Shown in pieces: positions 1-64,000 of a stretch of 64,000 bases of DNA (position 1 is the stretch's first letter; every line of letters starts with the position of its first letter). The DNA comes from Owenia fusiformis. Taxonomy: Eukaryota. Under the pieces are notes generated by a model. It was not told the origin of the DNA, made no database searches, and saw nothing but the letters and a program-made list of their open reading frames with translations. The stretch spans positions 248,001-312,000 of the forward strand of contig CAIIXF020000001.1 of NCBI GenBank assembly GCA_903813345.2, in the 5' to 3' direction. The translations under genes and the position numbers were made by a program.

Positions 1-1383
1 CTACAAGTGAATAACATTATTTAAACATGTACCAAATGGATGTACATCGGGCTGTGTACAATGGGTCACTACAAATGAATAACATTGTTTAAACATGTAC
101 CAAATGGATGAACATCGGGCTGGGTACAATGAGTCACTACAAGTCAATAACATTATTTAAACATGTGCCAAATGGATGTACATCGGACTGTGTACAATGG
201 GTCACTACAAGTGAATAACATTATTTAAATATGTACCAAATGGATGAACATTGGGCTGGGTACAATGAGTCACTACAAGTCAATAACATTATTTAAACAT
301 GTGCAAAATGGATGTACATCGGGCTGTGTACAATGGGTCACTACAAATGAATAACATTGTTCAAACATGTACCAAATGGATGAACATCGGGCTGGGTACA
401 ATGAGTCACTACAAGTGAATAACATTATTTAAACATGTACCAAATGGATGTACATTGGTCTGTGTACAATGACTCACTACAAGTGAATAACATTATTTAA
501 ACATGTACCAAATGGATGTACATCGGGCTGTGTACAATGGGTCACAACAAGTGAATAACATTATTTAAACATGTACCAAATGGATGTACATCGGGCTGTG
601 TACAATGGGTCACAACAAGTGAATAACATTATTTAAACATGTACCAAATGGATGTACAGCGGGCTGTGTACAATGGGTCACTACAAGTGAATAACATTAT
701 TTAAACATGTACCAAATGGATGTACATCGGGCTGTGTACAATGGGTTACAACAAGTGAATAACATTATTTAAACATGTACCAAATGGATGTACATCAGGC
801 TGTGTACAATGGGTCACTACAAGTGAATAACATTATTTAAACATGTACCAAATGGATGAACATCGAGCTGGGTACAATGGGTTACAACAAGTGAATAACA
901 TTATTTAAACATGTACCAAATGGATGTACATCGGGCTGTGTACAATGGGTTACAACAAGTGAATAACATTGTTTAAACATGTGCCAAATGGATGTACATC
1001 GGGCTGTGTACAATGGGTCACTACAAGTCAATAACATTATTTAAACATGTGCCAAATGGATGTACATCGGGCTGTGTACAATGGGTCACTACAAGTCAAT
1101 AACATTGTTTAAACATGTACCAAATGGATGTACATCGGGCTGTGTACAATGGGTCACTACAAGTGAATAACATTATTTAAACATGTACCAAATGGATGTA
1201 CATCGGGCTGTGTACAATGGGTCACTACAAATGAATAACATCATTTAAACATGTACCAAATGGATGGAGATTGGGCTGTGTACAATGAGTCACTACAAGT
1301 CAATAACATCATTTAAACATGTACCAAATGGATGTACATCGGGCTGTGTACAATGGGTTACAACAAGTGAATAACATTATTTA
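1..1383. repeat. 68-bp minisatellite, ~20 copies, runs off the window start
   Basis: Unit ctacaagtgaataacattatttaaacatgtaccaaatggatgtacatcgggctgtgtacaatgggtca, starting at 1 and 69. Confidence 0.97.
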
Positions 1384-2010: not shown

Positions 2011-2421
2011 TAACATGTTTCCCCGGGAAAATAACAGGGAATAAAATTGATATTCAAAAAATTTACATATCAGCCAAAATCCCGTAAATCCAGTAATTTC
2101 TCTAGTGTTATTAATCATTTATATTTTTAATTAAAACTTGTTAATAAAAGTAGAAAATGTTATATGATAAATTGTATCATTTTATGTCACAATCATTGGG
2201 TGATGACATATAAAAATTAAAAGTAAGTTTTAGAAAATCATTATTGAATAAATAGGTTATTGATGGTCGTGATGGAATATGAATTTTTTCCTTGAGGCCG
2301 ATATTGGCCTCAGAAAATATCATATTGACACTCGGGCTATCGCCCTCAATCAATTTGACATCTATTTTTGTTAATTACAAAATATACAAAGAAATCATGC
2401 ATTTTTGTGAATTCAGCTTAC

Positions 2422-2595
2422 TTGAACAAGTTGGTGGTATGCCACTCCATCCACCTTCCACGCAGGTTCTTAAGCTCTGTCCATTGAGCGAGTAACCCTC
2501 CATGCAACTGTAAAATGCCAGGTTACCAAAGCTGTTGCCATCGACCTTCACCATTCCATTCTTAGGGTTTGGTAGGGTCATGTTGCATGAAATTG
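2422..2595 (-). CDS. Exon: Sushi domain S4'
   Basis: PISCNMTLPNPKNGMVKVDGNSFGNLAFYSCMEGYSLNGQSLRTCVEGGWSGIPPTCS; acag acceptor, gtaagc donor. Confidence 0.92.
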
Positions 2596-5500: not shown

Positions 5501-8500
5501 ATTAATATGACAAATCGCATTATCTAGTTGCTCACAATATTCAATTCTGACGTCTTATTTGAGCTTCTGAGAACTTGTAGATGATTTTGAAAAAAACTGG
5601 TCAATTTGAAGAAAGTTAAAAAAATACCTTTTTGACTTTTTTGACTTTGAAAAGGTCATTAACGAATCTTAAGTTAGATTTGAAAGGATATTAACTGTAT
5701 TGATGAATGGATGAAATGTAATAAGATGAATTTAAACTATAGTAAAACAAGATTAATGAAAATAGGAAATACCTCAAAGTATGGAATTGATAAAGATGCC
5801 ATATAACATTATCAAATAATGTAATTGAAAATGTTGAAACTTGTAAATATTTAGGTGTTATTGTGGATGACAAATTAGCATTCAAAGTACTTATTGACAA
5901 GCCCATGATATTGAAAAGCTTTCTTGTAAGATAGGTATTTTTAGAAGGCTTAAACCATTTGTTTCAAAGGAAGCACTCATCACAATTTATAATACAATCA
6001 TATTACCAGAATTTAATTACTGCTCTGGGGAGAATGTTATAATAAAATCTATCTGACTAGACTAGAGAAACTTCAAAAGATGGCAGCACAAATTAAACTG
6101 GGAGCTAATTTTGATGTTTCAAGTGGCACTTTACTTGAGTCCCTAAATTGGACTCCAATTCAGGAAATGATTAGATACAGGAAATCAATTTTAATGTACC
6201 AGACCATTTCAGGCATCTCTCCCCCATATATTTAGAACTGTTTCAAAGAGACAAAGTCTGTCCATAATTATGCTACTAGAGCAGTTGTGGAAAATTCACT
6301 TTATGTACCAAAACCTAAACTTGAAATATTTAAGAAAAGCATATCATATAGCGGTTCACATCTTTGGAACAAGCTTGATAAGACTGTCAAAGAGTCTGAT
6401 TCTGTAAACTCAAAGCATATAAACAATTGTATCAGATCAGAAAATGAAAATTATGTAAATGCATTATTTAAAGACATTGTTCCTTATATTCATGTAATTC
6501 TATAATACAGTAAGTTGTTCTCTATGTTTCATGTAAATGCATACTTTGAAGATGCATATATATGAAATTGTTCCATATGTCCTATATATCTATTTGTATG
6601 TTTCTATATTTATTGTACATATTGTAAATAATTGTAAATTATTACTGGGCCTCTAGGAAGACCAGTTTTGTACTGATAGAGCTACCCAGAATAAATATAG
6701 TTTTCAAATCAAATCAAATCAAATCAACTTCTGAAAACTTGTACAGTAGATGATTTTGAAAAAAACTGAAATCAGTATTTGTTAATTTCTTGGAAGTTAT
6801 TGATAGAGGTCCAATAAATAAATGAGCCATGTTAACATGAAAAGGGAGAAGAAGGTCATGAACGCAAATATGCAGGTTGGCCCGAAAATTAACATTTTAC
6901 AATGTGTTAAGTATATTATGGCTACATTATGCATCATGCTTGCTAAATGAACAACTGATGCTATGATAAAAAGATGCTTTGAGAAAAGGCATTAACGTGA
7001 CAAAATAGCACCACCTAGTTGATCACAATATTATGAGTTCAATCTTAAGTCAGATTTTAACTTCTGAGAACTTGTTGATTTCCAAAAAGTAGTCAATTTG
7101 AGGCAAGTTGAAAAATACCTTGAGAAGGGCATTGTAGATGATTTTGAAAAAAACTTGTAAAGTCAGATTTGAACAACTGAGAAATTGTAGATGGTTTTGA
7201 AAAATAATTGGTCAATGAGAAGCAAGTTGAAAAATACCTTTTTGACCTTGAGAATATCACTGAAGGTCAAATGCCAAATCTAAAGTCATTCAAGAGTTGA
7301 CCAATATGTTAATTTTGGATATTGTAGGACCTAATTAACTTGTTTTGACATGATTAAAATGCAAAACTATTATCATAAATTTTTGAAAAAATAATAAAAT
7401 GTTGTAAAACATTTATTTTGAATTGAACGTTTGATTACATTACATTTACCAAAATAAAGTTAAACAAGTATTTATTGATCACAGCCTAAACTAGGATTTG
7501 GAAATAGCCTGGGAAACAAATTGAATTTGATAATATTGAACAGGTAGTCAATATGTTTACTTTTTGTTTTCTATTAAAATGGATATTGATATTTTATAGA
7601 TGAACCAATCAAGAATGATATTTCTGATGAAAATCTTGAAGAGACAGTGTCAAGAAATAAAAGAAAGGAAAGGATTGGTTGCCCCCCAAGCTATTGGTGC
7701 CTGTTAAGATATATGAACATGTGATGCGTTGATCTAATCATACAAAATAATGTACACTGAAAGACAACCTTACGAGATACAGAGCCGTTTGCTATATGTC
7801 ACATTGTGTACACTTGATATTACATAATAAATATCAAATATATATTTATTCTACTTCCAACTATGAAATTCTTATGTGTTAAACAGGTATCAGGAACGTT
7901 GACTTGGGGATTCAACTTTGCAGTTTCCTGGTGAATTGACAGTGTAACATATCATAACCATCATTTCAAAATATTTAATGCACTAGTGTCTTCTGTGCCT
8001 GCCTCTTAATTCAAGCTCCCATCCTCATCAAAGTATCATACAAGACCACCCTGATATGTCATAATTCAAGCTCCCATCCTTATCAAAGTCTCATACAAGA
8101 CCACCCTGATATGTCATAATTCAAGCTCCCATCCTCATCAAAGTCTCATACAAGACCACCCTGATATGTCATAATTCAAGCTCCCATCCTTATCAAAGTC
8201 TCACACAAGACCACCCTGATATGTCATAATTCAAGCTCCCATCCTCATCAAAGTCTACCACCCTGATATGTCATAATTCAAGCTCCCATCCTTATCAAAG
8301 TCTCATACAAGACCACCCCGATATGTCATAATTCAAGCTCCCATCCTCATCAAAGTCTCACACAAGACCACCCTGATATGTCATAATTCAAGCTCCCATC
8401 CTTATCAAAGTCTCACACAAGACCACCCTGATATGTCATAATTCAGCTCCAATCCTCATCAGTCTCACACAAGACCATCCTGATATGTCATAATTCAAGC

Positions 8501-11500
8501 TCCCATCCTTATCAAAGTCTCATACAAGACCACCCTGATATGTCATAATTCAGCTCCAATCCTCATCAAAGTCTCATACAAGACCACCCTGATATGTCAT
8601 AATTCAAGCTCCCATCCTTATCAAAGTCTCATACAAGACCACCCTGATATGTCATAATTCAAGCTCCCATCCTTATCAAAGTCTCATACAAGACCACCCT
8701 GATATGTCATAATTCAGCTCCAATCCTCATCAAAGTCTCATACAAGACCACCCTGATATGTCATAATTCAAGCTCCCATCCTTATCAAAGTCTCATACAA
8801 GACCACCCTGATATGTCATAATTCAGCTCCAATCCTCATCAAAGTCTCATACAAGACCACCCTGATATGTCATAATTCAAGCTCCCATCCTTATCAAAGT
8901 CTCATACAAGACCACCCTGATATGTCATAATTCAAGCTCCCATCCTTATCAAAGTCTCATACAAGACCACCCTGATATGTCATAATTCAAGCTCCCATCC
9001 TTATCAAAGTCTCATACAAGACCACCCTGATATGTCATAATTCAAGCTCCCATCCTCATCAAAGTCTCACACAAGACCACCCTGATATGTCATAATTCAA
9101 GCTCCAATCCTCATCAAAGTCTCACACAAGACCACCCTGATATGTCATAATTCAAGCTCCCATCCTTATCAAAGTCTCATACAAGACCACCCTGATATGT
9201 CATAATTCAAGCTCCCATCCTTATCAAAGTCTCATACAAGACCACCCTGATATGTCATAATTCAAGCTCCCATCCTTATCAAAGTCTCATACAAGACCAC
9301 CCTGATATGTCATAATTCAAGCTCCCATCCTTATCAAAGTCTCACACAAGACCACCCTGATATGTCATAATTCAAGCTCCCATCCTTATCAAAGTCTCAT
9401 ACAAGACCACCCTGATATGTCATAATTCAAGCTCCCATCCTTATCAAAGTCTCATACAAGACCACCCTGATATGTCATAATTCAAGCTCCCATCCTTATC
9501 AAAGTCTCATACAAGACCACCCTGATATGTCATAATTCAGCTCCAATCCTCATCAAAGTCTCATACAAGACCACCCTGATATGTCATAATTCAAGCTCCC
9601 ATCCTTATCAAAGTCTCATACAAGACCACCCTGATATGTCATAATTCAAGCTCCCATCCTTATCAAAGTCTCATACAAGACCACCCTGATATGTCATAAT
9701 TCAAGCTCCCATCCTTATCAAAGTCTCATACAAGACCACCCTGATATGTCATAATTCAGCTCCAATCCTCATCAAAGTCTCATACAAGACCACCCTGATA
9801 TGTCATAATTCAAGCTCCCATCCTTATCAAAGTCTCATACAAGACCACCCTGATATGTCATAATTCAAGCTCCCATCCTTATCAAAGTCTCATACAAGAC
9901 CACCCTGATATGTCATAATTCAAGCTCCCATCCTCATCAAAGTCTCACACAAGACCACCCTGATATGTCATAATTCAAGCTCCAATCCTCATCAAAGTCT
10001 CACACAAGACCACCCTGATATGTCATAATTCAAGCTCCCATTCTCATCAAAGTCTCACACAAGACCACCCTGATATGTCATAATTCAAGCTCCCATCCTT
10101 ATCAAAGTCTCACACAAGACCACCCTGATATGTCATAATTCAAGCTCCAATCCTCATCAAAGTCTCATACAAGACCACCCTGATATGTCATAATTCAGCT
10201 CCAATCCTCATCATAGTCTCATACAAGACCACCCTGATAAGTCATAATTCAAGCTCCCATCCTCATCAAAGTCTCACACAAGACCACCCCAATATGTCAT
10301 AATTCAAACTCCCATCCTCATCAAAGTCTCACACAAGACAACCCTGATATGTCATAATTCAAGCTCCAATCCTCATCAAAGTCTCACACAAGACCACCCT
10401 GATATGTCATAATTCAAGCTCCCATTCTCATCAAAGTCTCACACAAGACCACCCTGATATGTCATAATTCAAGCTCCCATCCTTATCAAGGTCTCACACA
10501 AGACCACCCTGATATGTCATAATTCAAGCTCCCATCCTTATCAAAGTCTCACACAAGACCACCCTGATATGTCATAATTCAAGCTCCAATCCTCATCAAA
10601 GTCTCACACAAGACCACCCTGATATGTCATAATTCAAGCTCCCATCCTCATCAAAGTCTCACACAAGACCACCCTGATATGTCAAAATTCAAGCTCCCAT
10701 CCTCATCAAAGTCTCACACAAGACCAATCTGATATGACATAATTCAAGCTCCCATCCTCATCAAAGTCTCATACAAGACCACCCTGATATGTCATAATTC
10801 AAGCTCCAATCCTCATCAAAGTCTCACACAAGACCACCCTGATATGTCATAATTCAAGCTCCCATCCTCATCAAAGTCTCACACAAGACCACCCTGATAT
10901 GTCATAATTCAAGCTCCCATCCTTATCAAAGTCTCATACAAGACCACCCTGATATGTCATAATTCAAGCTCCCATCCTCATCAAAGTCTCACACAAGACC
11001 ACCCTGATATGTCATAATTCAAGCTCCCATCCTTATCAAAGTCTCATACAAGACCACCCTGATATGTCATAATTCAAGCTCCCATCCTTATCAAAGTCTC
11101 ATACAAGACCACCCTGATATGTCATAATTCAAGCTCCCATCCTCATCAAAGTCTCACACAAGACCACCCTGATATGTCATAATTCAAGCTCCAATCCTCA
11201 TCAAAGTCTCACACAAGACCACCCTGATATGTCATAATTCAAGCTCCCATCCTTATCAAAGTCTCACACAAGACCACCCTAATATGTCATAATTCAAGCT
11301 CCCATCCTCATCAAAGTCTCACACAAGACCACCCTGATATGTCATAATTCAAGCTCCCATCCTTATCAAGGTCTCACACAAGACCAATCTGATATGTCAT
11401 AATTCAAGCTCCCATCCTTATCAAAGTCTCACACAAGACCACCCTGATATGTCATAATTCAAGCTCCAATCCTCATCAAAGTCTCACACAAGACCACCCT

Positions 11501-17500: not shown

Positions 17501-17691
17501 GGCCAAACTGCCAATATTGAGGCCATCAGAGAGGTCAACGGCACCTTTAGAAGGGAGGCCAGGGTCGCCACACTTCACCACTGGAAACACATGTAAAAAT
17601 ACAGTGAGGTATCAACGGGGGTCCACTTACACAGATTTCTTCTTCTTCTTACTATAAAGCACAGTGGTCTGTTTGTCTTTCTGTCTTTCTG

Positions 17692-17724
<33 letters not shown>

Positions 17725-50700: not shown

Positions 50701-53700
50701 GTTTCAATATAGCGCATATACTACAATTGCTCCAAGTCATGCCTTAGACTTAGTTTCAATATAGTGCATATACTACAATTGCTCCAAGTCATGCCTTAGA
50801 CTTAGTTTCAATATAGTGCATATACTACAATTGCTCCAAGTCATGCCTTAGACTTAGTTTCAATATAGTGCATACACTACAATCGCTCCAAGTCATGCCT
50901 TAGACTTAGTTTCAATATAGCACATATACTACAATTGCTCCAAGTCATGCCTAAGACTTAGTTTCAATATAGTGCATATACTACAATTGCTCCAAGTCAT
51001 GCCTTAGACTTAGTTTCAATATAGTGCATATACTACAATTGCTCCAAGTCATGCCTTAGACTTAGTTTCAATATAGTGCATATACTACAATTGCTCCAAG
51101 TCATGCCTTAGACTTAGTTTCAACATGGCGCATATACTACAATTGCTCCAAGTCATGCCTTAGACTTAGTTTCAATAAAGCACATATACTACAATTGCTC
51201 CAAGTCATGCCTAAGACTTAGCTTCAACATGGCGCATATACTACAATTGCTCCAAGTCATGCCTTAGACTTAGTTTCAATATAGCGCATATACTACAATT
51301 GCTCCAAGTCACGCCTAAGACTTAGTTTCAATATAGTGCATATACTACAATTGCTCCAAGTCATGCCTTAGACTTAGTTTCAATATAGCACATATACTAC
51401 AATTGCTCCAAGTCATGCCTAAGACTTAGCTTCAACATGGCGCATATACTACAATTGCTCCAAGTCATGCCTTAGACTTAGTTTCAATATAGCGCATATA
51501 CTACAATTGCTCCAAGTCATGCCTTAGACTTAGTTTCAATATAGTGCATACACTACAATCGCTCCAAGTCATGCCTTAGACTTAGTTTCAACATAGCGCA
51601 TATACTACAATCACTCCAAGTCATGCCTTAGACTTAGTTTCAATATAGTGCATATACTACAATTGCTCCAAGTCATGCCTAAGACTTAGTTTCAATATAG
51701 TGCATATACATGTACTACAATTGCTCCAAGTCATGCCTTAGACTTAGTTTCAATATAGTGCATATACTACAATTGCTCCAAGTCATGCCTTAGACTTAGT
51801 TTCAATATAGTGCATATACTACAATTGCTCCAAGTCATGCCTAAGACTTAGTTTCAATATAGTGCATATACATGTACTACAACTGCTCCAAGTCATGCCT
51901 TAGACTTAGTTTCAATATAGTGCATATACTACAATTGCTCCAAGTCATGCCTAAGACTTAGTTTCAATATAGTGCATATACATGTACTACAATTGCTCCA
52001 AGTCATGCCTTAGACTTAGTTTCAATAAAGCGCATACACTACAATCGCTCCAAGTCATGCCTTAGACTTAGTTTCAATATAGTGCATATACTACAATTGC
52101 TCCAAGTCATGCCTTAGACTTAGTTTCAATATAGTGCATATACTACAATTGCTCCAAGTCATGCCTTAGACTTAGTTTCAATATAGTGCATATACTACAA
52201 TTGCTCCAAGTCATGCCTTAGACTTAGTTTCAATATAGTGCATATACTACAATTGCTCCAAGTCATGCCTTAGACTTAGTTTCAATATAGTGCATATACT
52301 ACAATTGCTCCAAGTCATGCCTTAGACTTAGTTTCAATATAGTGCATATACTACAATTGCTCCAAGTCATGCCTTAGACTTAGTTTCAATATAGTGCATA
52401 TACATGTACTACAATTGCTCCAAGTCATGCCTTAGACTTAGTTTCAATAAAGCACATACACTACAATCGCTCCAAGTCATGCCTTAGACTTAGTTTCAAT
52501 ATAGTGCATATACTACAATTGCTCCAAGTCATGCCTTAGACTTAGTTTCAATATAGTGCATATACTACAATTGCTCCAAGTCATGCCTTAGACTTAGTTT
52601 CAATATAGTGCATATACTACAATTGCTCCAAGTCATGCCTTAGACTTAGTTTCAATATAGTGCATATACTACAATTGCTCCAAGTCATGCCTTAGACTTA
52701 GTTTCAATATAGTGCATATACTACAATTGCTCCAAGTCATGCCTAAGACTTAGTTTCAATATAGTGCATATACATGTACTACAATTGCTCCAAGTCATGC
52801 CTTAGACTTAGTTTCAATATAGTGCATATACTACAATTGCTCCAAGTCATGCCTTAGACTTAGTTTCAATATAGTGCATATACTACAATTGCTCCAAGTC
52901 ATGCCTAAGACTTAGTTTCAATATAGTGCATATACATGTACTACAATTGCTCCAAGTCATGCCTTAGACTTAGTTTCAATATAGTGCATATACTACAATT
53001 GCTCCAAGTCATGCCTTAGACTTAATTTCAATATAGTACATATACTACAATTGCTCCAAGTCATGCCTTAGACTTAGTTTCAATATAGTGCATATACTAC
53101 AATTGCTCCAAGTCATGCCTTAGACTTAGTTTCAATATAGTGCATATACTACAATTGCTCCAAGTCATGCCTTAGACTTAGTTTCAATATAGTGCATATA
53201 CTACAATTGCTCCAAGTCATGCCTAAGACTTAGTTTCAATATAGTGCATATACATGTACTACAATTGCTCCAAGTCATGCCTTAGACTTAGTTTCAATAA
53301 AGCGCATACACTACAATCGCTCCAAGTCATGCCTTAGACTTAGTTTCAATATAGTGCATATACTACAATTGCTCCAAGTCATGCCTTAGACTTAGTTTCA
53401 ATATAGTGCATATACTACAATTGCTCCAAGTCATGCCTTAGACTTAGTTTCAATATAGTGCATATACTACAATTGCTCCAAGTCATGCCTTAGACTTAGT
53501 TTCAATATAGTGCATATACTACAATTGCTCCAAGTCATGCCTTAGACTTAGTTTCAATATAGTGCATATACTACAATTGCTCCAAGTCATGCCTTAGACT
53601 TAGTTTCAATATAGTGCATATACTACAATTGCTCCAAGTCATGCCTAAGACTTAGTTTCAATATAGTGCATATACTACAATTGCTCCAAGTCATGCCTTA

Positions 53701-56700
53701 GACTTAGTTTCAATAAAGCGCATACACTACAATTGCTCCAAGTCATGCCTTAGACTTAGTTTCAATATAGTGCATATACTACAATTGCTCCAAGTCATGC
53801 CTAAGACTTAGTTTCAATATAGTGCATATACATGTACTACAACTGCTCCAAGTCATGCCTTAGACTTAGTTTCAATATAGTGCATATACTACAATTGCTC
53901 CAAGTCATGCCTAAGACTTAGTTTCAATATAGTGCATATACATGTACTACAATTGCTCCAAGTCATGCCTTAGACTTAGTTTCAATAAAGCGCATACACT
54001 ACAATCGCTCCAAGTCATGCCTTAGACTTAGTTTCAATATAGTGCATATACTACAATTGCTCCAAGTCATGCCTTAGACTTAGTTTCAATATAGTGCATA
54101 TACTACAATTGCTCCAAGTCATGCCTTAGACTTAGTTTCAATATAGTGCATATACTACAATTGCTCCAAGTCATGCCTTAGACTTAGTTTCAATATAGTG
54201 CATATACTACAATTGCTCCAAGTCATGCCTTAGACTTAGTTTCAATATAGTGCATATACTACAATTGCTCCAAGTCATGCCTTAGACTTAGTTTCAATAT
54301 AGTGCATATACTACAATTGCTCCAAGTCATGCCTTAGACTTAGTTTCAATATAGTGCATATACATGTACTACAATTGCTCCAAGTCATGCCTTAGACTTA
54401 GTTTCAATAAAGCACATACACTACAATCGCTCCAAGTCATGCCTTAGACTTAGTTTCAATATAGTGCATATACTACAATTGCTCCAAGTCATGCCTTAGA
54501 CTTAGTTTCAATATAGTGCATATACTACAATTGCTCCAAGTCATGCCTTAGACTTAGTTTCAATATAGTGCATATACTACAATTGCTCCAAGTCATGCCT
54601 TAGACTTAGTTTCAATATAGTGCATATACTACAATTGCTCCAAGTCATGCCTTAGACTTAGTTTCAATATAGTGCATATACTACAATTGCTCCAAGTCAT
54701 GCCTAAGACTTAGTTTCAATATAGTGCATATACATGTACTACAATTGCTCCAAGTCATGCCTTAGACTTAGTTTCAATATAGTGCATATACTACAATTGC
54801 TCCAAGTCATGCCTTAGACTTAGTTTCAATATAGTGCATATACTACAATTGCTCCAAGTCATGCCTAAGACTTAGTTTCAATATAGTGCATATACATGTA
54901 CTACAATTGCTCCAAGTCATGCCTTAGACTTAGTTTCAATATAGTGCATATACTACAATTGCTCCAAGTCATGCCTTAGACTTAATTTCAATATAGTACA
55001 TATACTACAATTGCTCCAAGTCATGCCTTAGACTTAGTTTCAATATAGTGCATATACTACAATTGCTCCAAGTCATGCCTTAGACTTAGTTTCAATATAG
55101 TGCATATACTACAATTGCTCCAAGTCATGCCTTAGACTTAGTTTCAATATAGTGCATATACTACAATTGCTCCAAGTCATGCCTAAGACTTAGTTTCAAT
55201 ATAGTGCATATACATGTACTACAATTGCTCCAAGTCATGCCTTAGACTTAGTTTCAATAAAGCGCATACACTACAATCGCTCCAAGTCATGCCTTAGACT
55301 TAGTTTCAATATAGTGCATATACTACAATTGCTCCAAGTCATGCCTTAGACTTAGTTTCAATATAGTGCATATACTACAATTGCTCCAAGTCATGCCTTA
55401 GACTTAGTTTCAATATAGTGCATATACTACAATTGCTCCAAGTCATGCCTTAGACTTAGTTTCAATATAGTGCATATACTACAATTGCTCCAAGTCATGC
55501 CTTAGACTTAGTTTCAATATAGTGCATATACTACAATTGCTCCAAGTCATGCCTTAGACTTAGTTTCAATATAGTGCATATACTACAATTGCTCCAAGTC
55601 ATGCCTAAGACTTAGTTTCAATATAGTGCATATACTACAATTGCTCCAAGTCATGCCTTAGACTTAGTTTCAATAAAGCGCATACACTACAATTGCTCCA
55701 AGTCATGCCTTAGACTTAGTTTCAATATAGTGCATATACTACAATTGCTCCAAGTCATGCCTTAGACTTAGTTTCAATATAGTGCATACACTACAATTGC
55801 TCCAGATTTAAGCTCTGACAACAAAGTGAATGTACATCTAACTTAAATTCTCAGAAAAATGGTGACCATTTTGAAATTCAGCAGTCATCAAATTAGTCCT
55901 GTATGTTCAGTTGTCGATCTATGCCATTTATACATATATGGTATGATAACATTTTGAATATTTTCCTCATATTATGTACATTCTCCTCTTTTACAGTGGA
56001 TGAAAAACTGGGGTGACTCACTCCCCATTTTTGGTATATGACCTGTGACCCGACCCACGACACCCAACCCAACTCTATCCTACACCTATCATATATTTAT
56101 AAAATTTGAACAAAATCTGTCAACCAGTATTCGAGTTATCCCTCTGACACATGAATGGATTGACAGATGAATGGATGGATGAACGAGCAGATGAAAGGAC
56201 GGACAAAAGTACAAACGGCCTCTCTATATCCCCACAAACTTAGCTGAGTTGGATAATGATACCCTTATACACTGTATTGCTTACCTTGGTACTGTATACT
56301 GAATCCCTTAGCACCAGATTTACTCGTAGACCTTGTTAGTGAGATGCACATTCTGTTAGTTGTGGGATAGAGGATGTCTGGCCAATTCTTGGCAACCAGG
56401 CCTGCCCCTCCACGGTACCTCCTTAGCTTAGGGTCAGGGGGAAAGAGATCATCCCCCTCACAGTCTGCCCCATCATATATATTCAACTCATCTCCCTAGT
56501 AGGGAAAACATATCCATATATAGTCCTTTTGGAAAAAATATGTAGAAAGGGCCCAAGGAAAAATGGCAGTTAGAAGCTGTGTTGCAAAAAAGGAAGATAA
56601 AAATAGGATTTAAAAATTATAGCATTGGGTTATTAGATTTACCTCATTCAAGTCCATGTCTTCAACAAAGACTTTCAGCCTCATCCTGCTGTTTACTCTG

Positions 56701-59700
56701 ACATTCCACTGACATTTGAAGCCTGTGGGGTAAGGTTGGGGGTAGCTGGGGGACACGATAGAGCCAGCATCTAGACGGAAGTCACCACCACACTTACCAA
56801 CTGGAAACAAAAATATCTTAAATATCATGAAGCATCTTCAGTACCCAACCAGAAAGTATTTCTAAATGTTTCTTACTTCTTTAACTATGCTTATGATCAC
56901 TTAGCATCACTTTTGATTGTTGCTTCATTGTCTTGGACCTTATTAACTTCAGACATTTTGTTTAACAGTCATGATCCCTGTACTGGTTGAGTTGTTTAGA
57001 TCTGCCACCAGATGGCGCATTTATCGCTTTATCCCATATATGGCCAAGGCGTTAGTTTCCTTGTTTTCAGTTACAGTTTGAAAACTGAGGTGCATAATTT
57101 TCTATCAATAAGACTGTCTGAGACATATTTCTACAAACTTATATGGGATATTAACTTATATATATATATCTTTGCACACACCTGGCATAGTAGGAGTGGG
57201 TGTTACAAGGGCAGACTCATTCTTGCATTCAGTGATGAATGCACTCCATTTGGCATTTTCCTGACATGTGATCATAAATGTTGCCAGTCCATTTATAGTG
57301 AAGCCAGGGTCACATGTGTAGGTAGCCTGGTCACCAAACCTCTCCCCACTCATAGAGACCATTCCATTTGAGATGTTGTAGAGTGGGCCACAATTGATCC
57401 CTGAAGTGTTTAAAATATGTTTTCCTTTACATATGTAACATTAATGGCTATACAGCTGCTAACATAAACTGGAGCAATATATTCAATATCTGCTTTGATC
57501 TCAGAAAAGCATCAACAACATGACAAGATTCATGTAAAATAGAGGGCATCGGGTAATAGGGACAAACAAGGTATATATAATAAAGGACGATTCTCGGTTT
57601 GGAGAACAGTCTCCTGGGCTAATAATGTTTTCATGAAAAATATAGAAATATTACCCAAATTAAACTATGAATATTCAAAAGAGGACATTTAAATCTACAA
57701 GATGTAAAAATGACAAATTGGTCTGAAGCAGGGGTAACGCTCAATAAGACCGATTCAATAAAATACAAGTCTCGATTTGGGGAAAGAAGTTCATCAGTGT
57801 ACTGCGCTAATAATTTTTTGCAAAAAATATAGAAATATTACCCAAATTAAATTATGACTATTTAAAAGAAGACATTCAAATCTATATTATGTAAAAAAAA
57901 TCAAATCTGTCCGAAGCAGGGATAATGCTCATTTAGATTGATGAACTTCGTTCTCCAAACCGAGAATCGTCCTTTAACCACTGCATTTTCTAGATATAAT
58001 AGCCATTGCTGGGAATTAAAAAATGTCAGTCAATGAGGCAGAATCGATAATATTACATCTGTACATGTGCAGTTAAAGTTGCTATATTAGCAATGCATTA
58101 AAATGTTAATTAAAAGTAATGAAAAGCCCTTAAGAGGTAATTTGACATACTTGTGCAATAAGGAGCTTTTCCACTCCATTGGCCATTCTCCAAGCATGTC
58201 CTTGTTTTCAAACCATTCAGTTTCCAGCCTGCCTGGCAAGTGTATGTCACCATATCCCCAAATCCTGTGCCGGAGGTTGTCACTGTGCTCAGTGGATGTT
58301 TGTCAGGAGCTCCACATTTAGACTCTGGAAGACATAAAATGTTATCATTCAATGATTTGAGTACCATACATAAAACACTGTGCCTTAGAAAGTCTGTACT
58401 GTTCTTATGGTTTCTTAAAAGGGGCTAGCTGAATCATTGAGGGCGCAATATTTTCTGTATTTTCTGAGAAATTATTGAATCATTTTTTTATTCAATGATA
58501 TTTTTCAACAGAAAATGACACTTACATGTCCAAGCATATGGAACAATGAAGACATGAAAATACAGTCCATATTTACATCAGACGGGCCAATCAGATCTAT
58601 ATCAAACTGGTTGAACCAAAATATTTAGAATTAGTGTCAAATTACAGTCTTAATGAATTCAAAAATACTTACGGACACATGCAGCAAATGTTCCACTCCA
58701 CTGTCCATTGGCTTGACACTGTCTTATTGGGTTGCCTTTCAAAACATAACCATCATTACACAGGTAGGTTGCCAATGTACCAAACTGCTTGCCAGTCACT
58801 GACACTATTCCATTCCCAGGGTTCCTCAGAACTTCGTCACATGTCACAACTGAAACACATTATAACATTCACACATCACATAACTGTAGTTACAATTTAT
58901 TTCATGATGTAACATATCGGTGTATTAAAAAAACATTTGTACTCAATGCCCTAAGTGGGCATCTCAGTGCCAATATCAAATTGTGTTCCAGGGCAACTAA
59001 TGTACATACAATTTACAAAGCATGGCTTTATGTAGGTTTCCTTGGAGCGACACAACTTCAAGATATGACTTTATTTTAATGTTGTAAAAGAAAGATTCCT
59101 TTTAAAAATGATCTATCTGAGTAATTTAGTATTTTTCAAAATTCTTATTTTTGAACCAAATCAATGTTACAAGCTTACTGCCATTTTTCCATTTTCAATT
59201 CATAGTGCCCTATTCAAAAAATAATGACATAGTTTTCGCAAAGTAACAGTTAAGCAAAACGTCAACTTACGTATACATAATACATCAGGCCCAGACCAGT
59301 AGCCATCTGCCCCACACGTCCTCACAGGGTTGTCTTTTGCCTTAAAGCCAGTATCACACTTATAGCTGATTGTGGCCCCCACAGTGAAGTCATTACCTAC
59401 AACTTTACCATTGGCAGGGTCTCCAGGATCTCCACAACTAGTTACTTTGCCAGAGCCTGCAATTGTCAAGCATGTGCTAAATAAGCACTGTACAGTTAAA
59501 CTTGTGTATTATATGTATCTCTCTCAATTCAGCACTTTCATATGTGAACATGTTTCTAATCTGAAAAGCCTGCAATTGTCAAATATATATTTGATTAAAC
59601 TGTACTGTACACTTAAACTTGTGTCTAAACACTTTTTAATTGAACATGTCTCTTTTTTGAATTTAGCATATGCATGTATTGACTCATATATCAGAACCAC

Positions 59701-62700
59701 TTAATTTGACCATTTTTGGCTGATATCAAGCAGCACATACAACCTGTCTTTAGATAGGTGCCAATACATCATATGGCTGTCAAATAAATATCTTAAATTC
59801 AAAGTTCAAAAGTGACTTCATGCAGCTTTGCAACCAAATATATAATATAACCTATACTGGCGATTACTAGAGTGCTGCTAACTCGATAAAAGGCTGGCGC
59901 TGGCTTGAATTGTCTGTGGTTCTAGCCAGGATAAAGATACCAGTTCTTCAACTCGACAATGGGAAGAACTGCTCTACCTTAGTGACTAATATGTCATGAT
60001 ATGACATCTAAAGAGTCAATAAAAGATATATAATATAAAAACCACATTAAATAAAACACCAGGATTACTTCCAAAGTAAAATATGATTTCAAGTTTTTAC
60101 AAATATTCTAAATAAACCAAACCTTGACAGGTTGGGACATATCCAGACCAGATGCCATCTTGTTGGCATATTCTGATGGCATTCCCAGATAGTTTGTAAC
60201 CTGAAATAGAAAATACAAAATAACAAAAATACACTGCTAAGAATAAGTACTGACCCATATTTGAATACCCAGAGCACTGAACTGTGAATTAGCTGAAAGG
60301 ATCAGTTCAGATATAGAAAGTTAGTGTCTAATTCAGTTTTGGTTGACCAGTATAGCCAATAATGTATGGCCAATGGACATATTGCATAAATCAATGATAT
60401 TATTAAGCTGTTAGTATAGTCTTTTATGACCCAGAGCCAAAAACATATGATCAATGGACATATTTCAAATGTGTACACATTGAACAAATCTTTCTACATA
60501 CCAGGTTTACAAGTGAATGTAGCTACACTGCCTGGGGCTCCTCCATTGCTCTTGGATACCATACCATTGGCAGGTAGGCCTACATCCCCACAGCTTACTT
60601 CTGCAACATAATAATAAACAGGTGTGAAATATATCAAGAATTAATGGATCTGAATATTAGTACTACATTTGCCTGAACATGCCCCAACATATTTTGGTGA
60701 TCATTATTTACTTGTAAATTCTTTGGGTATTACATTTGCCTGAACATGCCCAAACATGTCTGGGTGATCGTTATTTAGTTGTACATCCTTTGGGTATTAC
60801 ATTTGCCTGAACATGCCCAAACATGTCTGGGTTATCATTATTTACTTGCACATTCTTTGGGTATAGGTACTACATTTGCCTGAACATGCCCAAACATGTC
60901 TGGGTGATCATTATTTACTTGCACATTCTCACAGGCTGGTATCGAAATATTTGTCCGCTGTGACGGAGCATACTATTTTTCATAAAAACACTAAGAATAC
61001 TTCACGATTTATTTTTTAACTCATATGTTTCGTTATACTATACTAAATTGCTTACTCCATGCAATGGATATATCATTTGCGGGTAACTTTCACTTCTGTT
61101 TGAAGTCCAATTACGCTGGGAAGAAAAGCTATTGAAAATTTTTAAATCTTTTATAAAAAATAATGTTTAATTTTTTTGTCCGCTGTGACGGAGCAGTTGC
61201 AAATGTGAACTGTGAAAATGCTCCGTCACAGCGGACAAAAATATTAATATTATTTTTTATTAAAAAAATTAAAAAGACCCAATGCATTAATATCTCATTA
61301 ATACATTCAGAGTTATGCTTAAAACATATGTTAATATTATCGTGTCACTATATCATGCCATTAAAAAGTTAAAAAAGAAATGGTACATTTTAGAGTTTGA
61401 TACTCTGGTGCCGTTTTTAATAACTCCTAGCGTTATTGGACTTCAAACAGAAGTGAAGGTTACACGCAAATGATATATCCATTGCATGGAGTAAGTAATT
61501 ATCTTTGATATAACGAAACATATGATTTAAAAAATAAATCGTGAATCATTCTTAGTGTTTTTATGAAAAATAGCATGCTCCGTCACAGCGGACAAATCTT
61601 TCGATACCAGCCTGTGATTCTTTGGGTATAGGTATTACATTTGCCTGAACATGCCCAAACATGTCTGGGTTATCATTATTTACTTGCACATTCTTTGGGT
61701 ATAGGTACCACATTTGCTTGAACATGCCCAAACATGTCTGGGTTATCATTATTTACTTGCACATTCTTTGGGTATAGGTATTACATTTGCCTGAACATGC
61801 CCAAACATGTCTGGGTGATCATTATTTACTTGCACATTCTGTACTGGATAAAGCATAAGAATGAGATTTTATAAGAAATAATACACCGAAGGCCGAAGGC
61901 CTGAGGTTATTATTTCTTATCAAATCGAATTCGAATGCTTTATCTTACTTAAATCACACACATTCTTATTACAGGTAAATGGTCTATTATATTACAGTTA
62001 AAAGGTCTTTAATCCGGAAAAATGTGATTTCTTTTGTATTGACTATTCAAACTGTGAATTTTGCAAACTTCAACCAGGCTAACAATGACCCTGGCTCTTA
62101 TTGGTTAAAATTTGTTGTTATATAGCCAATTAATTGTAACAACAAAAAGAGTTGGTTGCATTGACCTCATGAGTGTGAGTTGATGTAAGTGACTGAGTGG
62201 GCTATAATTATTCTAGCTTCAGTGCACTACAGGTGACTGTCCAGTCCAGAACATTGAATTTGAATACAGCAGAATATTTGTAAGTAAGATAAGATCAATG
62301 ATGTAGATAGCAACAAAAATTGATAAATTGTTTTATTCTAAAGAATGCACAGTAACAAGAGAAGGGTACATGTATTTTTACATATATATATTGTTTTTTA
62401 GGGAATGAAAACTATCAAAAACTGTCAATGGTCATTTATGTCTCACTTGTTTTTGATAGCTTGCCAAGTGTACATTCTTTAAAAACAATAGAAAAATAAT
62501 GCACTTTCCTTTTGATAAAACCATACATTCTTAAAAATAAACCACAGCAAATTCTATTGTGTTGCTACCCAAGTGGGATTTAATTGGGTATAGGTACTAC
62601 ATTTGCCTGAACATGCCCAAACATGTCTGGGTTATGATTATTTACTTGCACATTCTTCGGGTATAGGTACTACATTTGCCTGAACATGCCCAAACATGTC

Positions 62701-64000
62701 TGGGTTATCATTATTTACTTGCACATTCTTCGGGTATAGGTATTACATTTGCCTGAACATGCCCAAACATGTCTGGGTGATCATTATTTACTTGCACATT
62801 CTTTGGGTATTACATTTGCCTGAACATGCCCAAACATGTCTGGGTTATCATTATTTACTTGCACATTCTTTGGGTATAGGTACTACATTTGCCTGAACAT
62901 GCCCAAACATGTCTTGGTGATCATTATTTACTTGTACATTCTTTGGGTATTACATTTGCCTGAACATGCCCAAACATGTCTGGGTGATCGTTATTTACTT
63001 GCACATTCTTTGGGTATTACATTTGCCTGAACATGCCCAAACATGTCTGGGTTATCATTATTTACTTGCACATTCTTTGGGTATAGGTATTACATTTGCC
63101 TGAACATGCCCAAACATGTCTGGGTTATCATTATTTACTTGCACATTCTTTGGGTATAGGTACTACATTTGCCTGAACATGCCTAAACATGTCTGGGTTA
63201 TCATTATTTACTTGCACATTCTTTGGGTATAGGTACTACATTTGCCTGAACATGCCCAAACATGTCTGGGTTATCATTATTTACTTGCACATTCTTTGGG
63301 TATAGGTATTACATTTGCCTGAACATGCCCAAACATATCTAGGTGCATAATTATTTACTTGCACATTCTTTGGAAAGGTACTAAATTTACCTGAACAAAC
63401 AACATATCTGGGTGATCATTATAATTACTTGCTCATTGTTTGGGAAGTAAAGGTACTACATTTACCTGAACATGCCCCAACTGTTCCAATCCAATTGTTG
63501 TTGGCCTGACAGACCACTACAGTCTCTATTAGCCCTGTCTTGAACCTGCCATTGCCATTACATCTGAACTTAGCTTGGAAACCTGTGGGGTAGTAACTCT
63601 GGGTGTTGGACAGGAATGTCCCTGAGGCCTTGGGAAGCTCAGATTGGGGACAACCAATAGCTGAAAGTGTAAGTCATTTATTTTATCATTTTCATTAATA
63701 ATGAAGGAATAGATACATTTGATTGTTATTCGAATAGAAATAGGATGAAGAATATTTACGTCAAGTATACTATACAGTGTATCAGGATAATTTTGACATA
63801 TATTCAGACTTCATTCTCAATATTGTTGAATCAACTGCAATTTGCCCTTTATTTTGGGGACTATTATGCCTTTCTAACAATGATCCTCCTCCCTCTTAAC
63901 AAGTACATGTACTTACATCTGTATGTCAGCCAGAAGCCCTTTTCAGTCTCTGCAAACAAACTATCTGTGATTGGTGCAATGCCAGTCTTAAATGTCACTG
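2422..64000 (-). CDS. Multi-exon CUB and Sushi(CCP) domain extracellular protein, partial at both ends (16 exons in window)
   Basis: Exons in transcription order: 63917-64000, 63466-63660, 60502-60600, 60123-60200, 59271-59456, 58673-58849, 58151-58324, 57182-57400, 56643-56800, 56285-56495, 48733-48933, 20078-20215, 18511-18705, 17404-17580, 16960-17154, 2422-2595. All introns are GT-AG; all are phase 1 except 56496-56642 (phase 0). The spliced frame is stop-free and gives 4-Cys Sushi and CUB motifs. Confidence 0.92.
2815..3345. mobile_element. MITE with CAGAGCTA TIRs and 6-bp TSD (hAT-like, tentative)
   Basis: atagtt|CAGAGCTATTAGAATTC ... GAATTCTAGTAGCTCTG|atagtt; subterminal tgcagaa repeats. 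Confidence 0.8.
3927..4837. mobile_element. Tc1/mariner-type foldback MITE
   Basis: TA|CAGGGTGTTCAAAAAAAAACGCAACCC ... GGGTTGCGTTTTTTTTAACACCCTG|TA; arms are inverted almost to the centre, and the right arm has an internal duplication. Confidence 0.9.
5145..7724 (+). CDS. Nested antisense two-exon gene for a 75-aa secreted prepropeptide with a one-disulfide C-terminal peptide
   Basis: Exon 1 5145-5247 (AAG|gtatgc) and exon 2 7600-7724 (ttttatag|), phase 1. Product MMNLKMLLLTVMMLCGILAITKTQELSGDVNVMKDEPIKNDISDENLEETVSRNKRKERIGCPPSYWCLLRYMNM*. TATAAA at 5094-5099, AATAAA at 7826-7831. Confidence 0.7.
5684..6725 (+). mobile_element. 5'-truncated, frameshifted LINE (CR1/L2-group ORF2 C-terminus plus 3' tail)
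   Basis: Fragments KYLGVIVDDKL, IGIFRRLKPF, IYNTIILPEFNYC, LEKLQK, LNWTPIQ, HNYATR and FKKSISYSGSHLWNKL; ends in (AAATC)n after aataaa. Sits inside the intron of the nested peptide gene. Confidence 0.85.
8007..16924. repeat. 55-bp minisatellite, ~160 copies
   Basis: Unit taattcaagctcccatcctYatcaaagtctcaYacaagaccaccctgatatgtca; caagacc recurs at 8041 and 8096. Confidence 0.98.
16960..17154 (-). CDS. Exon: Sushi domain S3'
   Basis: ctag|NEGTTSCGDPGDPANGEKIGAFNDFPVGETVDYKCNRGYTLVTDGQSKRTCQPNGKFSGSDPRCD|gtaagt. Not in the ORF track. Confidence 0.92.
17176..17242. mobile_element. Tiny TA-flanked pogo/Tc1-type MITE remnant
   Basis: TA|CAGTGAAA ... CAGGTTTTACTG|TA. Confidence 0.5.
17404..17580 (-). 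CDS. Exon: Sushi domain S2'
   Basis: LVKCGDPGLPSKGAVDLSDGLNIGSLATFRCAAGVGLNGQTTRTCQDDGTWSGTLPFCN; 177 nt. Confidence 0.92.
18372..18443 (-). mobile_element. tRNA-derived SINE head or tRNA pseudogene (Arg-TCT-like)
   Basis: Minus strand GGCTCCGTAGCTCAACTGGAAGAGC...GATCTAA...GTGGGTTCAATTCCCAC: A box, B box and T arm intact; acceptor and anticodon stems mismatched. Confidence 0.7.
18511..18705 (-). CDS. Exon: Sushi domain S1'
   Basis: VVGCSSSLLPRLQNGQPQNTAGFYPQGYILTYKCNIKYNFRNGMKEYPVMCMEYGDWDGVLPDCL; 195 nt; ttttcag acceptor, gtaagt donor. Confidence 0.9.
18692..19308. repeat. 43-bp minisatellite, ~14 copies, overlapping the acceptor of exon 18511-18705
   Basis: Unit gagcagccaaccactgaaaacaatgacacattgtaaatataat; ctg recurs at 18706, 18749, 18792, 18835. 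Confidence 0.97.
20078..20215 (-). CDS. Exon: C-half of CUB domain B
   Basis: GFKDKLNLCGRKTIAPMTSTESEVRLTFDTELNLDDTDKGFWIKYK; completes the CUB begun at 48933 across a 28.5-kb intron. Confidence 0.9.
20251..32598. repeat. 103-bp tandem array, ~120 copies
   Basis: aaatgtcaataac recurs at 20261, 20364, 20467 and onwards. Confidence 0.98.
32730..32887. mobile_element. Truncated right end of the same Transib-like MITE family as 60930-61616
   Basis: gatatatccattgcatg...ttcgataccagcctgtg matches ~61460-61616. Confidence 0.8.
33240..33870. repeat. Degenerate tandem copies of a dispersed repeat
   Basis: aacttgtagatgattttgaaaaaaattggtcaatttgaagcaagttgaaaaa...gaccttg recurs several times; also seen at ~5560-5680, ~6725-6800 and ~7050-7290. 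Confidence 0.75.
33971..35381. mobile_element. Long inverted-repeat DNA element (left end lost) with a HINE-like insertion at ~34590-35052
   Basis: aacaaatctggaagatttattttt... / ...aaaaataaatcttccagatttgtt inverted arms; right end ggcgtg|TA; related partial copy at ~19310-19912. The inner element has a (GACA/GACG)n tract and the 3' hairpin tagctcaccatgtgagcta. Confidence 0.7.
35805..38702 (+). mobile_element. Helentron-associated (HINE/DINE-like) element carrying an internal ~475-bp tandem array
   Basis: 5' palindrome aaattgaacaagttcaattt followed by agactccagattt; 12-bp agctgagtaagt tract; core repeats (gacaccatatctcaaaagtggg at 36307, 36781, 37257, ~37866); (AGA/AAT)n tract; 3' hairpin tagactccagattttcatctggagtcta at 38672-38699. 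Confidence 0.7.
39253..39266. promoter_or_regulatory. Second RFX X-box-like motif (GTAACCATGGTAAC)
   Basis: One mismatch from the palindromic consensus GTTNCCATGGNAAC. Confidence 0.4.
39929..39943 (+). promoter_or_regulatory. RFX X-box motif (GTTGCT-ACC-GGCAAC)
   Basis: Fits GTTRCY-N1-3-RGYAAC; lies ~55 nt upstream of a GTAAGT donor (39997-40002) that could end a first non-coding exon of the nested RING-like gene. Confidence 0.5.
40311..41032. repeat. 45-bp minisatellite, ~16 copies
   Basis: Unit ttcaccataatatagataagtgcagtatattatggaatatgagta. Confidence 0.97.
41262..41819 (+). CDS. Nested antisense 185-aa protein with degenerate RING-HC-like zinc finger, candidate N-myristoyl/palmitoyl motif and His-rich tail
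   Basis: Non-repetitive ORF MGNELCFC...CRSC-x17-H-x2-CSIC-x13-CHMC... ending in four KHGASH-type repeats. Strong acceptor ttttatttttcag at 41062-41074 upstream; AATAAA at 41970-41975 downstream. Confidence 0.7.
   Translation: MGNELCFCILSDTDDSSDTNEHSEHVPLQKFNQNNLDRIPDHKQSKVPIIENTQNDNGMDIHSDRPHDLFSHDVTNMDPGLLSCRSCYERYGQEERQPFIPDKKHSLCSICYDNMKEVHGEPFPCHMCHDSIYSAPCKKIKFTDPYDIDMLELIEAWDAKHGASHKHGASHKHGASHKHRASHHH
45503..48398. mobile_element. Non-autonomous CACTA/EnSpm-type element
   Basis: AT|CACTAGGGCAGAGCATTTGTACTGAAAGGAGCG ... CGCTCCTTTGAGTACAAATGCTCTGCTTTAGTG|AT: CACTA termini, 2-bp TSD, many subterminal (g/a)tactgaaaaat repeats in both orientations. Confidence 0.8.
46974..47949 (-). mobile_element. 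Internally deleted Tc1/mariner transposon, DD41D (rosa-type), with transposase pseudogene fragments
   Basis: TA|CAGGGTGACCCAAAAAAAATGCAACCC TIRs of ~190 bp. Minus strand reads FSDESH, then WF*KDGATPH...RSLDLNAPDFYIWGYLRDNVY; 41 residues lie between the second and third catalytic Asp. Confidence 0.88.
48733..48933 (-). CDS. Exon: N-half of CUB domain B
   Basis: AIPNCGGTLLDPEGEILSPGYPEEDYDEGDTCVWNIKAGQGQRIQLTVLDFKLRDSNNCEEDSLVIT; tgtag acceptor, gtataa donor. Confidence 0.92.
48958..55804. repeat. 52-bp minisatellite, ~130 copies (some 58-bp variants with an extra catgta)
   Basis: Unit ctccaagtcatgccttagacttagtttcaatatagtgcatatactacaattg; gactta recurs at 49025 and 49077. Confidence 0.98.
56285..56495 (-). 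CDS. Exon: C-half of CUB domain A
   Basis: ctag|GDELNIYDGADCEGDDLFPPDPKLRRYRGGAGLVAKNWPDILYPTTNRMCISLTRSTSKSGAKGFSIQYQ|gtaagc; phase 0-1. Confidence 0.9.
56643..56800 (-). CDS. Exon: N-half of CUB domain A
   Basis: VGKCGGDFRLDAGSIVSPSYPQPYPTGFKCQWNVRVNSRMRLKVFVEDMDLNE (CGG...G.I.SP.YP..YP....C.W motif); phase 1-0. Confidence 0.92.
57182..57400 (-). CDS. Exon: Sushi domain S6 plus Thr/Pro linker
   Basis: RINCGPLYNISNGMVSMSGERFGDQATYTCDPGFTINGLATFMITCQENAKWSAFITECKNESALVTPTPTMP; tcag acceptor, weaker gtgtgt donor that gives the required phase 1. Confidence 0.85.
57584..57973. mobile_element. MITE with AGG termini at a TTAA-like site (Kolobok-like)
   Basis: ataa|AGGACGATTCTCGGTTTGGAGAAC ... 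GTTCTCCAAACCGAGAATCGTCCT|ttaa: perfect 24-bp TIR, with two internal degenerate direct repeats. Confidence 0.8.
58151..58324 (-). CDS. Exon: Sushi domain S5
   Basis: QSKCGAPDKHPLSTVTTSGTGFGDMVTYTCQAGWKLNGLKTRTCLENGQWSGKAPYCT; ccag acceptor, gtatgt donor. Confidence 0.92.
58673..58849 (-). CDS. Exon: Sushi domain S4
   Basis: LVTCDEVLRNPGNGIVSVTGKQFGTLATYLCNDGYVLKGNPIRQCQANGQWSGTFAACV; tcag acceptor, gtaagt donor. Confidence 0.92.
59271..59456 (-). CDS. Exon: Sushi domain S3
   Basis: GSGKVTSCGDPGDPANGKVVGNDFTVGATISYKCDTGFKAKDNPVRTCGADGYWSGPDVLCI; gcag acceptor, gtaagt donor. Confidence 0.92.
60123..60200 (-). CDS. Exon: C-half of Sushi domain S2
   Basis: ttcag|GYKLSGNAIRICQQDGIWSGYVPTCQ|gtttgg; 78 nt. 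Confidence 0.88.
60502..60600 (-). CDS. Exon: N-half of Sushi domain S2
   Basis: gcag|EVSCGDVGLPANGMVSKSNGGAPGSVATFTCKP|gtatgt; 99 nt. Confidence 0.88.
60930..61616. mobile_element. Transib-like MITE (CAC...GTG termini, 5-bp TSD) inserted in the minisatellite
   Basis: attct|CACAGGCTGGTATCGAAA ... TTTCGATACCAGCCTGTG|attct; ~190-bp inverted arms; internal inverted pair of tgtccgctgtgacggagca. Confidence 0.85.
61841..62584. mobile_element. Non-autonomous element without obvious TSD inserted in the minisatellite, family uncertain
   Basis: Interrupts the unit at gcacattct|ttgggtatagg. Long hairpin gataaagcat...ataagaaataa-(ccgaaggccgaagg)-ttatttcttat...atgctttatc; ends gtgggatttaa. Confidence 0.65.
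63466..63660 (-). CDS. Exon: Sushi domain S1
   Basis: tttcag|...SIGCPQSELPKASGTFLSNTQSYYPTGFQAKFRCNGNGRFKTGLIETVVVCQANNNWIGTVGACS|gtaaat; 195 nt, phase 1-1. Not in the ORF track. Confidence 0.9.
63917..64000 (-). CDS. Exon (5'-truncated by window): C-terminal strands of a CUB domain
   Basis: Translates VTFKTGIAPITDSLFAETEKGFWLTYR (CUB-type GF-x-x-x-Y end), followed by donor GTAAGT at 63916-63911. Not in the ORF track. Confidence 0.85.

Follow-up and report, generated by a model that had tools for sequence, protein, structure and literature searches.

Why should tandem repeat arrays with unrelated units lie beside the exons of a single gene? The question is raised by a 64-kb stretch of Owenia fusiformis DNA, the window of this analysis. 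Tandem repeat arrays that are locus-specific within the window make up about 32.2 kb, or about half of it (array-free length 31,773 nt). The initial annotation had described seven large arrays, every one of them at or near a splice site, and had traced the pattern to a mechanism tied to exon edges.

The host gene lies on the minus strand and encodes Sushi and CUB domains. Its exons were found from minus-strand stop-to-stop open reading frames (ORFs) and Pfam, and their borders were set from AG/GT sites. Pfam Sushi or CUB domains were present in 10 of the 12 exon ORFs scanned. The 12-exon version encoded 740 amino acids without a stop, and a tblastn search of the window with that protein added exons B2, A2a and A2b (Table 1). 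No further Sushi- or CUB-like piece of the window matched in tblastn below an E-value of 0.3. The model predicted from sequence has 15 exons with AG/GT borders in the window and is spliced to an open frame of 858 amino acids (0 stops), with 48 and 63 stops in the other two frames of the spliced model. The introns between exons A2a and F were array-free (147–750 nt). One Sushi domain was split over exons A2a and A2b (99 and 78 nt) by a 301-nt intron; the other Sushi domains were each contained in a single exon.

In three raw RNA runs with the same species label, read depth over the exons in 16900–20290 was 0–1.5 and no exon-exon joint was seen. A joint that 'goes back' (20289>17223) was present in 2, 7 and 11 reads of the three runs. 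In it, the two 21-nt stretches 20269–20289 and 17223–17243 are linked through 18 other letters. The 103-bp unit and the stretch 17230–17244 have 15 identical bases in common. The reads joining 20269–20289 and 17223–17243 probably come from a transcribed repeat at another genomic site.

Table 1. Exons and introns of the host gene, tandem repeat arrays and other repeats of the window. Introns are given in the order of transcription.
Feature	Position	Strand	Length or copies	Evidence and remarks
Exon A (Sushi)	63466–63660	-		Pfam, borders
Exon A2a	60502–60600	-		tblastn, borders
Exon A2b	60123–60200	-		tblastn, borders
Exon B	59271–59456	-		Borders, spliced frame
Exon B2	58673–58849	-		tblastn, borders, spliced frame
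Exon C	58151–58324	-		Pfam/borders
Exon D	57182–57400	-		Pfam/borders
Exon E	56643–56800	-		Pfam/borders
Exon F	56285–56495	-		Pfam/borders
Exon G (first half of CUB domain)	48733–48933	-		Pfam, borders
Exon H (second half of CUB domain)	20078–20215	-		Borders, spliced frame
Exon I (Sushi)	18511–18705	-		Pfam, borders
Exon J (Sushi)	17404–17580	-		Pfam, borders
Exon K (Sushi)	16960–17154	-		Pfam, borders; donor GT starts at 16959
Exon L (Sushi)	2422–2595	-		Pfam, AG/GT borders, open spliced frame
Intron A>A2a			2,865 nt	
Intron A2a>A2b			301 nt	
Intron A2b>B			666 nt	
Intron B>B2			421 nt	
Intron B2>C			348 nt	
Intron C>D			750 nt	
Intron D>E			381 nt	
Intron E>F			147 nt	
Intron F>G			7,351 nt	
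Intron G>H			28,517 nt	
Intron H>I			1,372 nt	
Intron I>J			930 nt	
Intron J>K			249 nt	
Intron K>L			14,364 nt	
68-bp array	1–1383		20 copies	TRF; truncated by window start; near end 1,038 nt from exon L donor
55-bp array	8007–16924		~163 copies	TRF; far end sharp; sense strand G-rich
43-bp array	18691–19307 (to 19335 with degenerate outermost unit)	-	x14.3	TRF and sequence; 94% matches
103-bp array	20256–32599		120 copies	TRF; far end sharp
45-bp array	40311–41037		16 copies	TRF; middle of the 28.5-kb intron G>H; adjoins nested ORF without support
52-bp array	48976–55804		130 copies	TRF; 480 nt from exon F donor
73-bp array, three blocks	60660–60929, 61617–61840, 62584–63481 (overall 60645–63481)	-	x3.9, x3.1, x12.5	TRF
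Nested ORF	41262–41819	+	185 aa	Starts MGNE; RING-like Cys/His pattern; 18-bp x4 coding repeat in tail
476-bp repeat	36162–38358		x3–4.5	TRF; mid-intron
12-bp array	35877–36084		x17	TRF; mid-intron
166-bp repeat			x2.5	TRF; mid-intron
380-bp repeat			x1.9	TRF; mid-intron
170-bp repeat			x1.9	TRF; mid-intron
48-bp array	48034–48365		x6.8	Mid-intron; subterminal repeat of the inverted-repeat transposon 44755–48562
Inverted-repeat transposon (outer)	44755–48562			Sequence; 48-bp subterminal repeats
Inner element	46970–47953			195-nt arms, 96% complementary; nested in 44755–48562
689-bp element	60929–61617		689 bp	193-nt inverted arms, 92% complementary; inserted into 73-bp array
Dispersed repeat (transposon fragment)	19336–19911			Abuts 43-bp array far end; in-window copies 33971–35381; DNA depth 1,600–170,000 vs ~80 baseline
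tRNA-Arg-like sequence	18369–18444	-		Rfam tRNA 36.8 bits, ARAGORN; 66 nt downstream of exon I donor

All seven large arrays were recovered with TRF, and their units, which had been called unrelated, did not cross-match. For six of the seven, no second copy of the unit was found in the window; the 73-bp unit formed three blocks within one shared intron. The claimed proximity to splice sites held for five of the seven, the 55-, 103-, 52-, 43- and 73-bp arrays. The splice coordinates given for three of these were exact in the sequence (donor G at 16959, last intron bases at 20216 and 48934). The 55-bp array ended 35 nt from the donor of exon K (approximately 28 nt when a degenerate partial unit is counted), and the near end of the 103-bp array lay 40 nt upstream of the exon H acceptor. 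The 52-bp array lay 42 nt from the exon G acceptor; a degenerate partial unit, judged by eye, reached to approximately 21 nt. The 43- and 73-bp arrays overlapped junctions as described, the 43-bp unit holding an acceptor and the 73-bp unit a donor.

The 68-bp array is cut off by the window start, so that a distance can be given for its near end alone, 1,038 nt from the donor of exon L. The 45-bp array did not fit the pattern. It had been placed at the acceptor of a nested gene (41074), which is a motif only, and it is at least 7.7 kb from any junction of the host gene. The candidate acceptor consists of a pyrimidine tract and CAG; 100 equally good motifs were counted in the 31.7 kb of non-array DNA, and the chance of such a motif within 45 nt of the array is approximately 13%. 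The nested ORF matched the Pfam family zf-RING_5 with an E-value of 3.7e-4, which does not reach the cut-off, and proteins of near length included no homologue. The statement that no array sits free in mid-intron stood for the many-copy arrays of 43–103-bp units and failed for few-copy and transposon-borne arrays, which do lie mid-intron (Table 1). No array remnants were found at far-side splice sites.

The two arrays that overlap junctions showed directly what they were made from. In the 43-bp unit, 28 nt of intron with the polypyrimidine tract and AG are followed by 15 bases from the start of exon I. The tract and AG are kept in all 13 upstream copies as well as at the authentic site, and the degenerate outermost unit is without AG. 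The result is a series of 14 tandem, near-identical 3′ splice sites (18706–19307, minus strand). Splicing in silico at any of the 13 acceptors upstream would put 43n extra bases into the transcript and lead to a premature stop, so that only the last acceptor keeps the 858-amino-acid frame. The 73-bp unit carries the donor and, ahead of it, the final 16 bases of exon A. Its exon-end motif was found at the authentic donor and in 19 further copies, one with GT and 18 with GC. The authentic donor of exon A and the closest copy, approximately 75 nt downstream, both read CAG/GTAAAT. The GC in the other copies could go back to a disarmed founder copy from which the array grew, or to selection against additional donors. 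Since both units hold exon bases together with a splice site, the two arrays are copies of the junction itself and thus were not delivered by transposons. No boundary-spanning end unit was found for the 55-, 103- and 52-bp arrays by a shuffle test of the junction flanks: the similarity of these units to the flank was matched by 259, 42 and 69 of 500 shuffles, respectively, and was not significant.

The arrays account for much of the length of the introns that hold them. In the five inflated introns, arrays and not transposons were the largest single contributor (F>G 93%, K>L 62%, A>A2a 49%, G>H 46% and H>I 46%), which supports the proposal of a non-transposon route to intron growth. The 73-bp array fills intron A>A2a, from exon A to 44–58 nt before the acceptor of exon A2a. 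The array contributes 1,396 nt to this intron, and insertions of 687 and 738 nt and the 44–58-nt flank make up the rest; when array and insertions are taken away, the intron comes to approximately 100–115 nt. The arm family of the 689-bp element inserted into this array was also present at 32727–32887, 128 nt past the far end of the 103-bp array. In intron H>I, the array takes up 630 nt and a dispersed repeat 576 nt; the other 166 nt belong to neither, and without array and transposon the intron reduces to approximately 166–240 nt. The nine array-free introns (147–930 nt, median 381 nt) are partly transposon themselves. In the longest of them, I>J, a tRNA-like SINE head is present and high-depth repeat takes up at least 570 nt. 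The tRNA-Arg-like sequence in it is likely a tRNA-derived SINE; DNA depth around it rose to approximately 38,000, compared with a baseline near 80.

Transposon-type repeats were found in the far flanks of the big arrays, except that the 480-nt far flank of the 52-bp array had no repeat match within the window. Compared with other window DNA, the far flanks showed similarity only to the inverted-arm family at 32727–32887. Among 33 further intron ORFs, no transposon Pfam family was matched at E ≤ 0.01, and one DUF match was below the cut-off. Two ORFs, 47110–47460 and 6017–6505, which we take to resemble transposase and LINE tails, were without a Pfam match. The three largest arrays (28 kb in total) contained no transposon insertion, whereas their flanks hold many. 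Either the bulk of these arrays is younger than the flank insertions, or the arrays purge insertions. The transposon edges that could be placed were 66–231 nt from junctions and never within 45 nt, compared with 42 nt or less for the anchored arrays. An ordinary explanation can be that transposons near splice sites are more harmful than local duplications.

Whether the anchoring exceeds chance depended on the introns against which it was measured. The pattern was noticed post hoc in one window, and this applies to all probabilities given here. With uniform placement in today's array-free window, seeds buried in exons being excluded, approximately 6.5% of seeds overlap one of the 30 junctions or come to lie no more than 42 nt from it, and the probability of at least five anchored arrays among seven was 2e-5. 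Today's introns are the wrong yardstick, however, because the 73-bp array fills its intron, intron H>I shrinks to a short remainder, and the array-free introns hold transposons. In a model with short introns, a seed was allowed only if it left the 6 nt next to the donor and the 20 nt next to the acceptor untouched, or if it spanned a junction. The probability of at least five anchored arrays among six was then 0.91 for an ancestral intron length of 150 nt, 0.35 for 200 nt, 0.11 for 250 nt, 0.04 for 300 nt and 0.008 for 400 nt. With lengths drawn from the nine array-free introns, it was 0.005 when weighted by length and 0.02 when unweighted. Short-intron geometry can therefore explain the anchoring pattern, provided that introns K>L, G>H and F>G were short in ancestry as well.

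We lean towards an explanation in which the anchoring reflects local duplications in originally short introns, without a special exon-edge mechanism. The ancestral introns of the Sushi/CUB gene would have been short, roughly 100–400 nt, and local tandem duplications of 43–103 bp would have arisen in five of them. Only duplications that left one intact set of splice signals would have survived. The survivors would lie between approximately +30 of the donor and approximately −40 of the acceptor, the latter being the branch-point zone, or would span a junction with a spare copy. If the intron is short, no tolerated duplication can be more than a few tens of bases away from an exon. Such seeds may then have grown by unequal exchange or slippage into arrays of 0.6–12 kb, and transposons may have piled up in the unique DNA on the far side of the array. 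Through array growth and far-side transposons together, an array would now look anchored to one exon of a giant intron. The typical distance from branch point to 3′ splice site is 19–37 nt, as given in the accessible part of PMC10078293, and the acceptor gaps of 40–42 nt observed here are just outside this range. For introns K>L, G>H and F>G we infer the ancestral length, as we do the order of events and the selective filter in general. Three observations are not predicted by originally short introns: the G-rich sense strand in five of the five anchored arrays, the freedom of the three largest arrays from transposon insertions, and the distance of at least 66 nt between the placed transposon edges and junctions.

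These observations leave room for a process coupled to exon edges, as proposed in the initial annotation, in which R-loops, transcription–replication conflict at a paused polymerase or breaks at exon nucleosome borders would seed duplications beside junctions. We regard this as fairly unlikely. It would account for the low probabilities obtained with uniform placement and with empirical intron lengths, and for the position of the arrays closer to junctions than any transposon edge. It would also agree with the strand composition, since the non-template strand was G-rich in all five anchored arrays (GC skew of the sense strand +0.56, +0.25, +0.25, +0.17 and +0.05; non-array DNA −0.02). The skew was clear in the three largest arrays (+0.56 at 8007–16924, +0.25 at 20256–32599 and +0.25 at 48976–55804), and the 55-bp array, with the highest value, has GGG runs. 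However, the GC content of the arrays is only 33–41%, the skew of the 73-bp array (+0.05) is near zero, and five equal signs out of five, noted post hoc, have a chance of 1 in 32. Moreover, short-intron geometry fully explains two arrays, and the 45-bp array is away from verified junctions. With introns A>A2a and H>I at approximately 100–115 and 166–240 nt and array-free introns of 147–930 nt, a mechanism linked to exon edges need not be invoked. A more elaborate form, which we hold to be rather improbable, is that exon-edge seeding coupled to transcription or splicing acts in this lineage and that the arrays then expand, giving rise to giant introns without the help of transposons; it would also make the 14 tandem acceptors and 20 donor-type sites that the spliceosome has to resolve.

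It is improbable that the arrays were retained for a role in splicing, either as dense binding sites that define exons beside long introns or as regulators of exon choice. Tandem repeats near splice sites affect human splicing (accessible part of PMC10078293) and have been linked to alternative splicing in C. elegans (PMC4039745, likewise in part), and the 55-bp unit has G-runs close to a donor. Against such a role, arrays of 7–12 kb far exceed a plausible enhancer size, and since the units are unrelated to each other, the arrays have no motif in common.

A local, non-transposon origin of the arrays, which the initial annotation had put forward, is supported: two units hold exon bases and a splice site, and no flanks or units are common between arrays. 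In one DNA run, which is rough and possibly from the assembly sample of the window itself and then not independent support, the single-copy baseline was 71–83. On the same terms, bins of the 43-bp array had a depth of 52–525, at most 14 copies times the baseline, which fits a single locus. At the edge of the 103-bp array, a bin reached 9,903, which is roughly what 120 copies at a depth of 80 would give, and true dispersed repeats nearby had a depth of 1,500–170,000. DNA contigs break at the arrays. Searches of metagenome contigs gave neither a relative of exon G nor an exact match to 39 bases taken from the 103-bp unit. Of the arrays in the window, only the 48-bp one was found to be bounded by conserved transposon termini or inverted repeats, and none of the seven large ones.

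Satellite-like arrays borne by Helentron and MITE elements have been described in bivalves, including oyster and clam genomes (PMC7492417, PMC3879986 and PMC8268682, each in the part available). Like these elements, the window has short-unit arrays in gene-rich DNA, and its 48-bp subterminal repeat is of the same kind; unlike them, the seven large arrays are without common termini or a second locus in the window, and two contain exon sequence. Delivery of the arrays by transposons with internal tandem repeats, as members of dispersed families, is thus very improbable: a transposon-borne array does exist in the window and the 45-bp array, next to an orphan ORF, may be a further case, but two units contain host exon bases, no array has flanks, inverted repeats or units in common with another site in the window, the depths of the 43- and 103-bp arrays contrast with 38,000–170,000 for true dispersed repeats nearby, and three independent insertions 35–42 nt from splice sites would be as improbable as the pattern itself.

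The preferred reading, local duplication in short introns, has a precedent in human minisatellites whose first monomer lies across an exon-donor boundary. These include F7 intron 7 (37 bp), CBS intron 13, the interferon-induced 6-16 gene, LAMIN B2 and PDGF, as listed in the accessible part of PMC1557585, to which the comparisons with F7 below also refer. The 43- and 73-bp arrays both have two traits of the F7 type, a head-to-tail unit of 10–100 bp and an end unit that spans the boundary. As in F7, the end of the exon and the donor are part of the 73-bp unit, so that the 5′ splice site recurs down the intron, and the origin of the array is local and independent of transposons. Exon sequence accounts for 16 bases of the 73-bp unit, ahead of the donor, compared with 4 exon and 33 intron bases in F7. 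The pseudo-sites of F7 are identical to the authentic site, whereas 18 of the 19 pseudo-donors here have GC. Unlike in F7, the 73-bp array fills the whole intron and is split by insertions, at least one of which is a transposon. On the acceptor side, this type has a counterpart in the 43-bp array, with tandem 3′ in place of 5′ splice sites. In the literature surveyed, which was available in part, we found neither an acceptor-spanning array nor a genome-wide excess of minisatellites at exon edges. Internal tandem repeats at exon–intron boundaries of human segmental-duplication genes lengthen introns and can change splicing, according to the accessible part of PMC2812944. In that source the repeats comprise approximately four units of approximately 30 bp and were derived from the comparison of paralogues; here, several arrays of tens to 160 units occur in one gene.

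If the anchoring is only geometry, the locus is a worked example of how short introns may grow to 7–28 kb mainly through single-locus arrays rather than transposons. It also provides two natural settings for splice-site competition, which can be compared with the human F7 model of splice-site choice: a series of 14 near-identical 3′ sites of which the last alone is in frame, and an array of donor copies that have GC except in the nearest one. If an excess of arrays at exon edges were to survive controls genome-wide, it would point to a new mutational link from exon definition or transcription to the birth of repeats.
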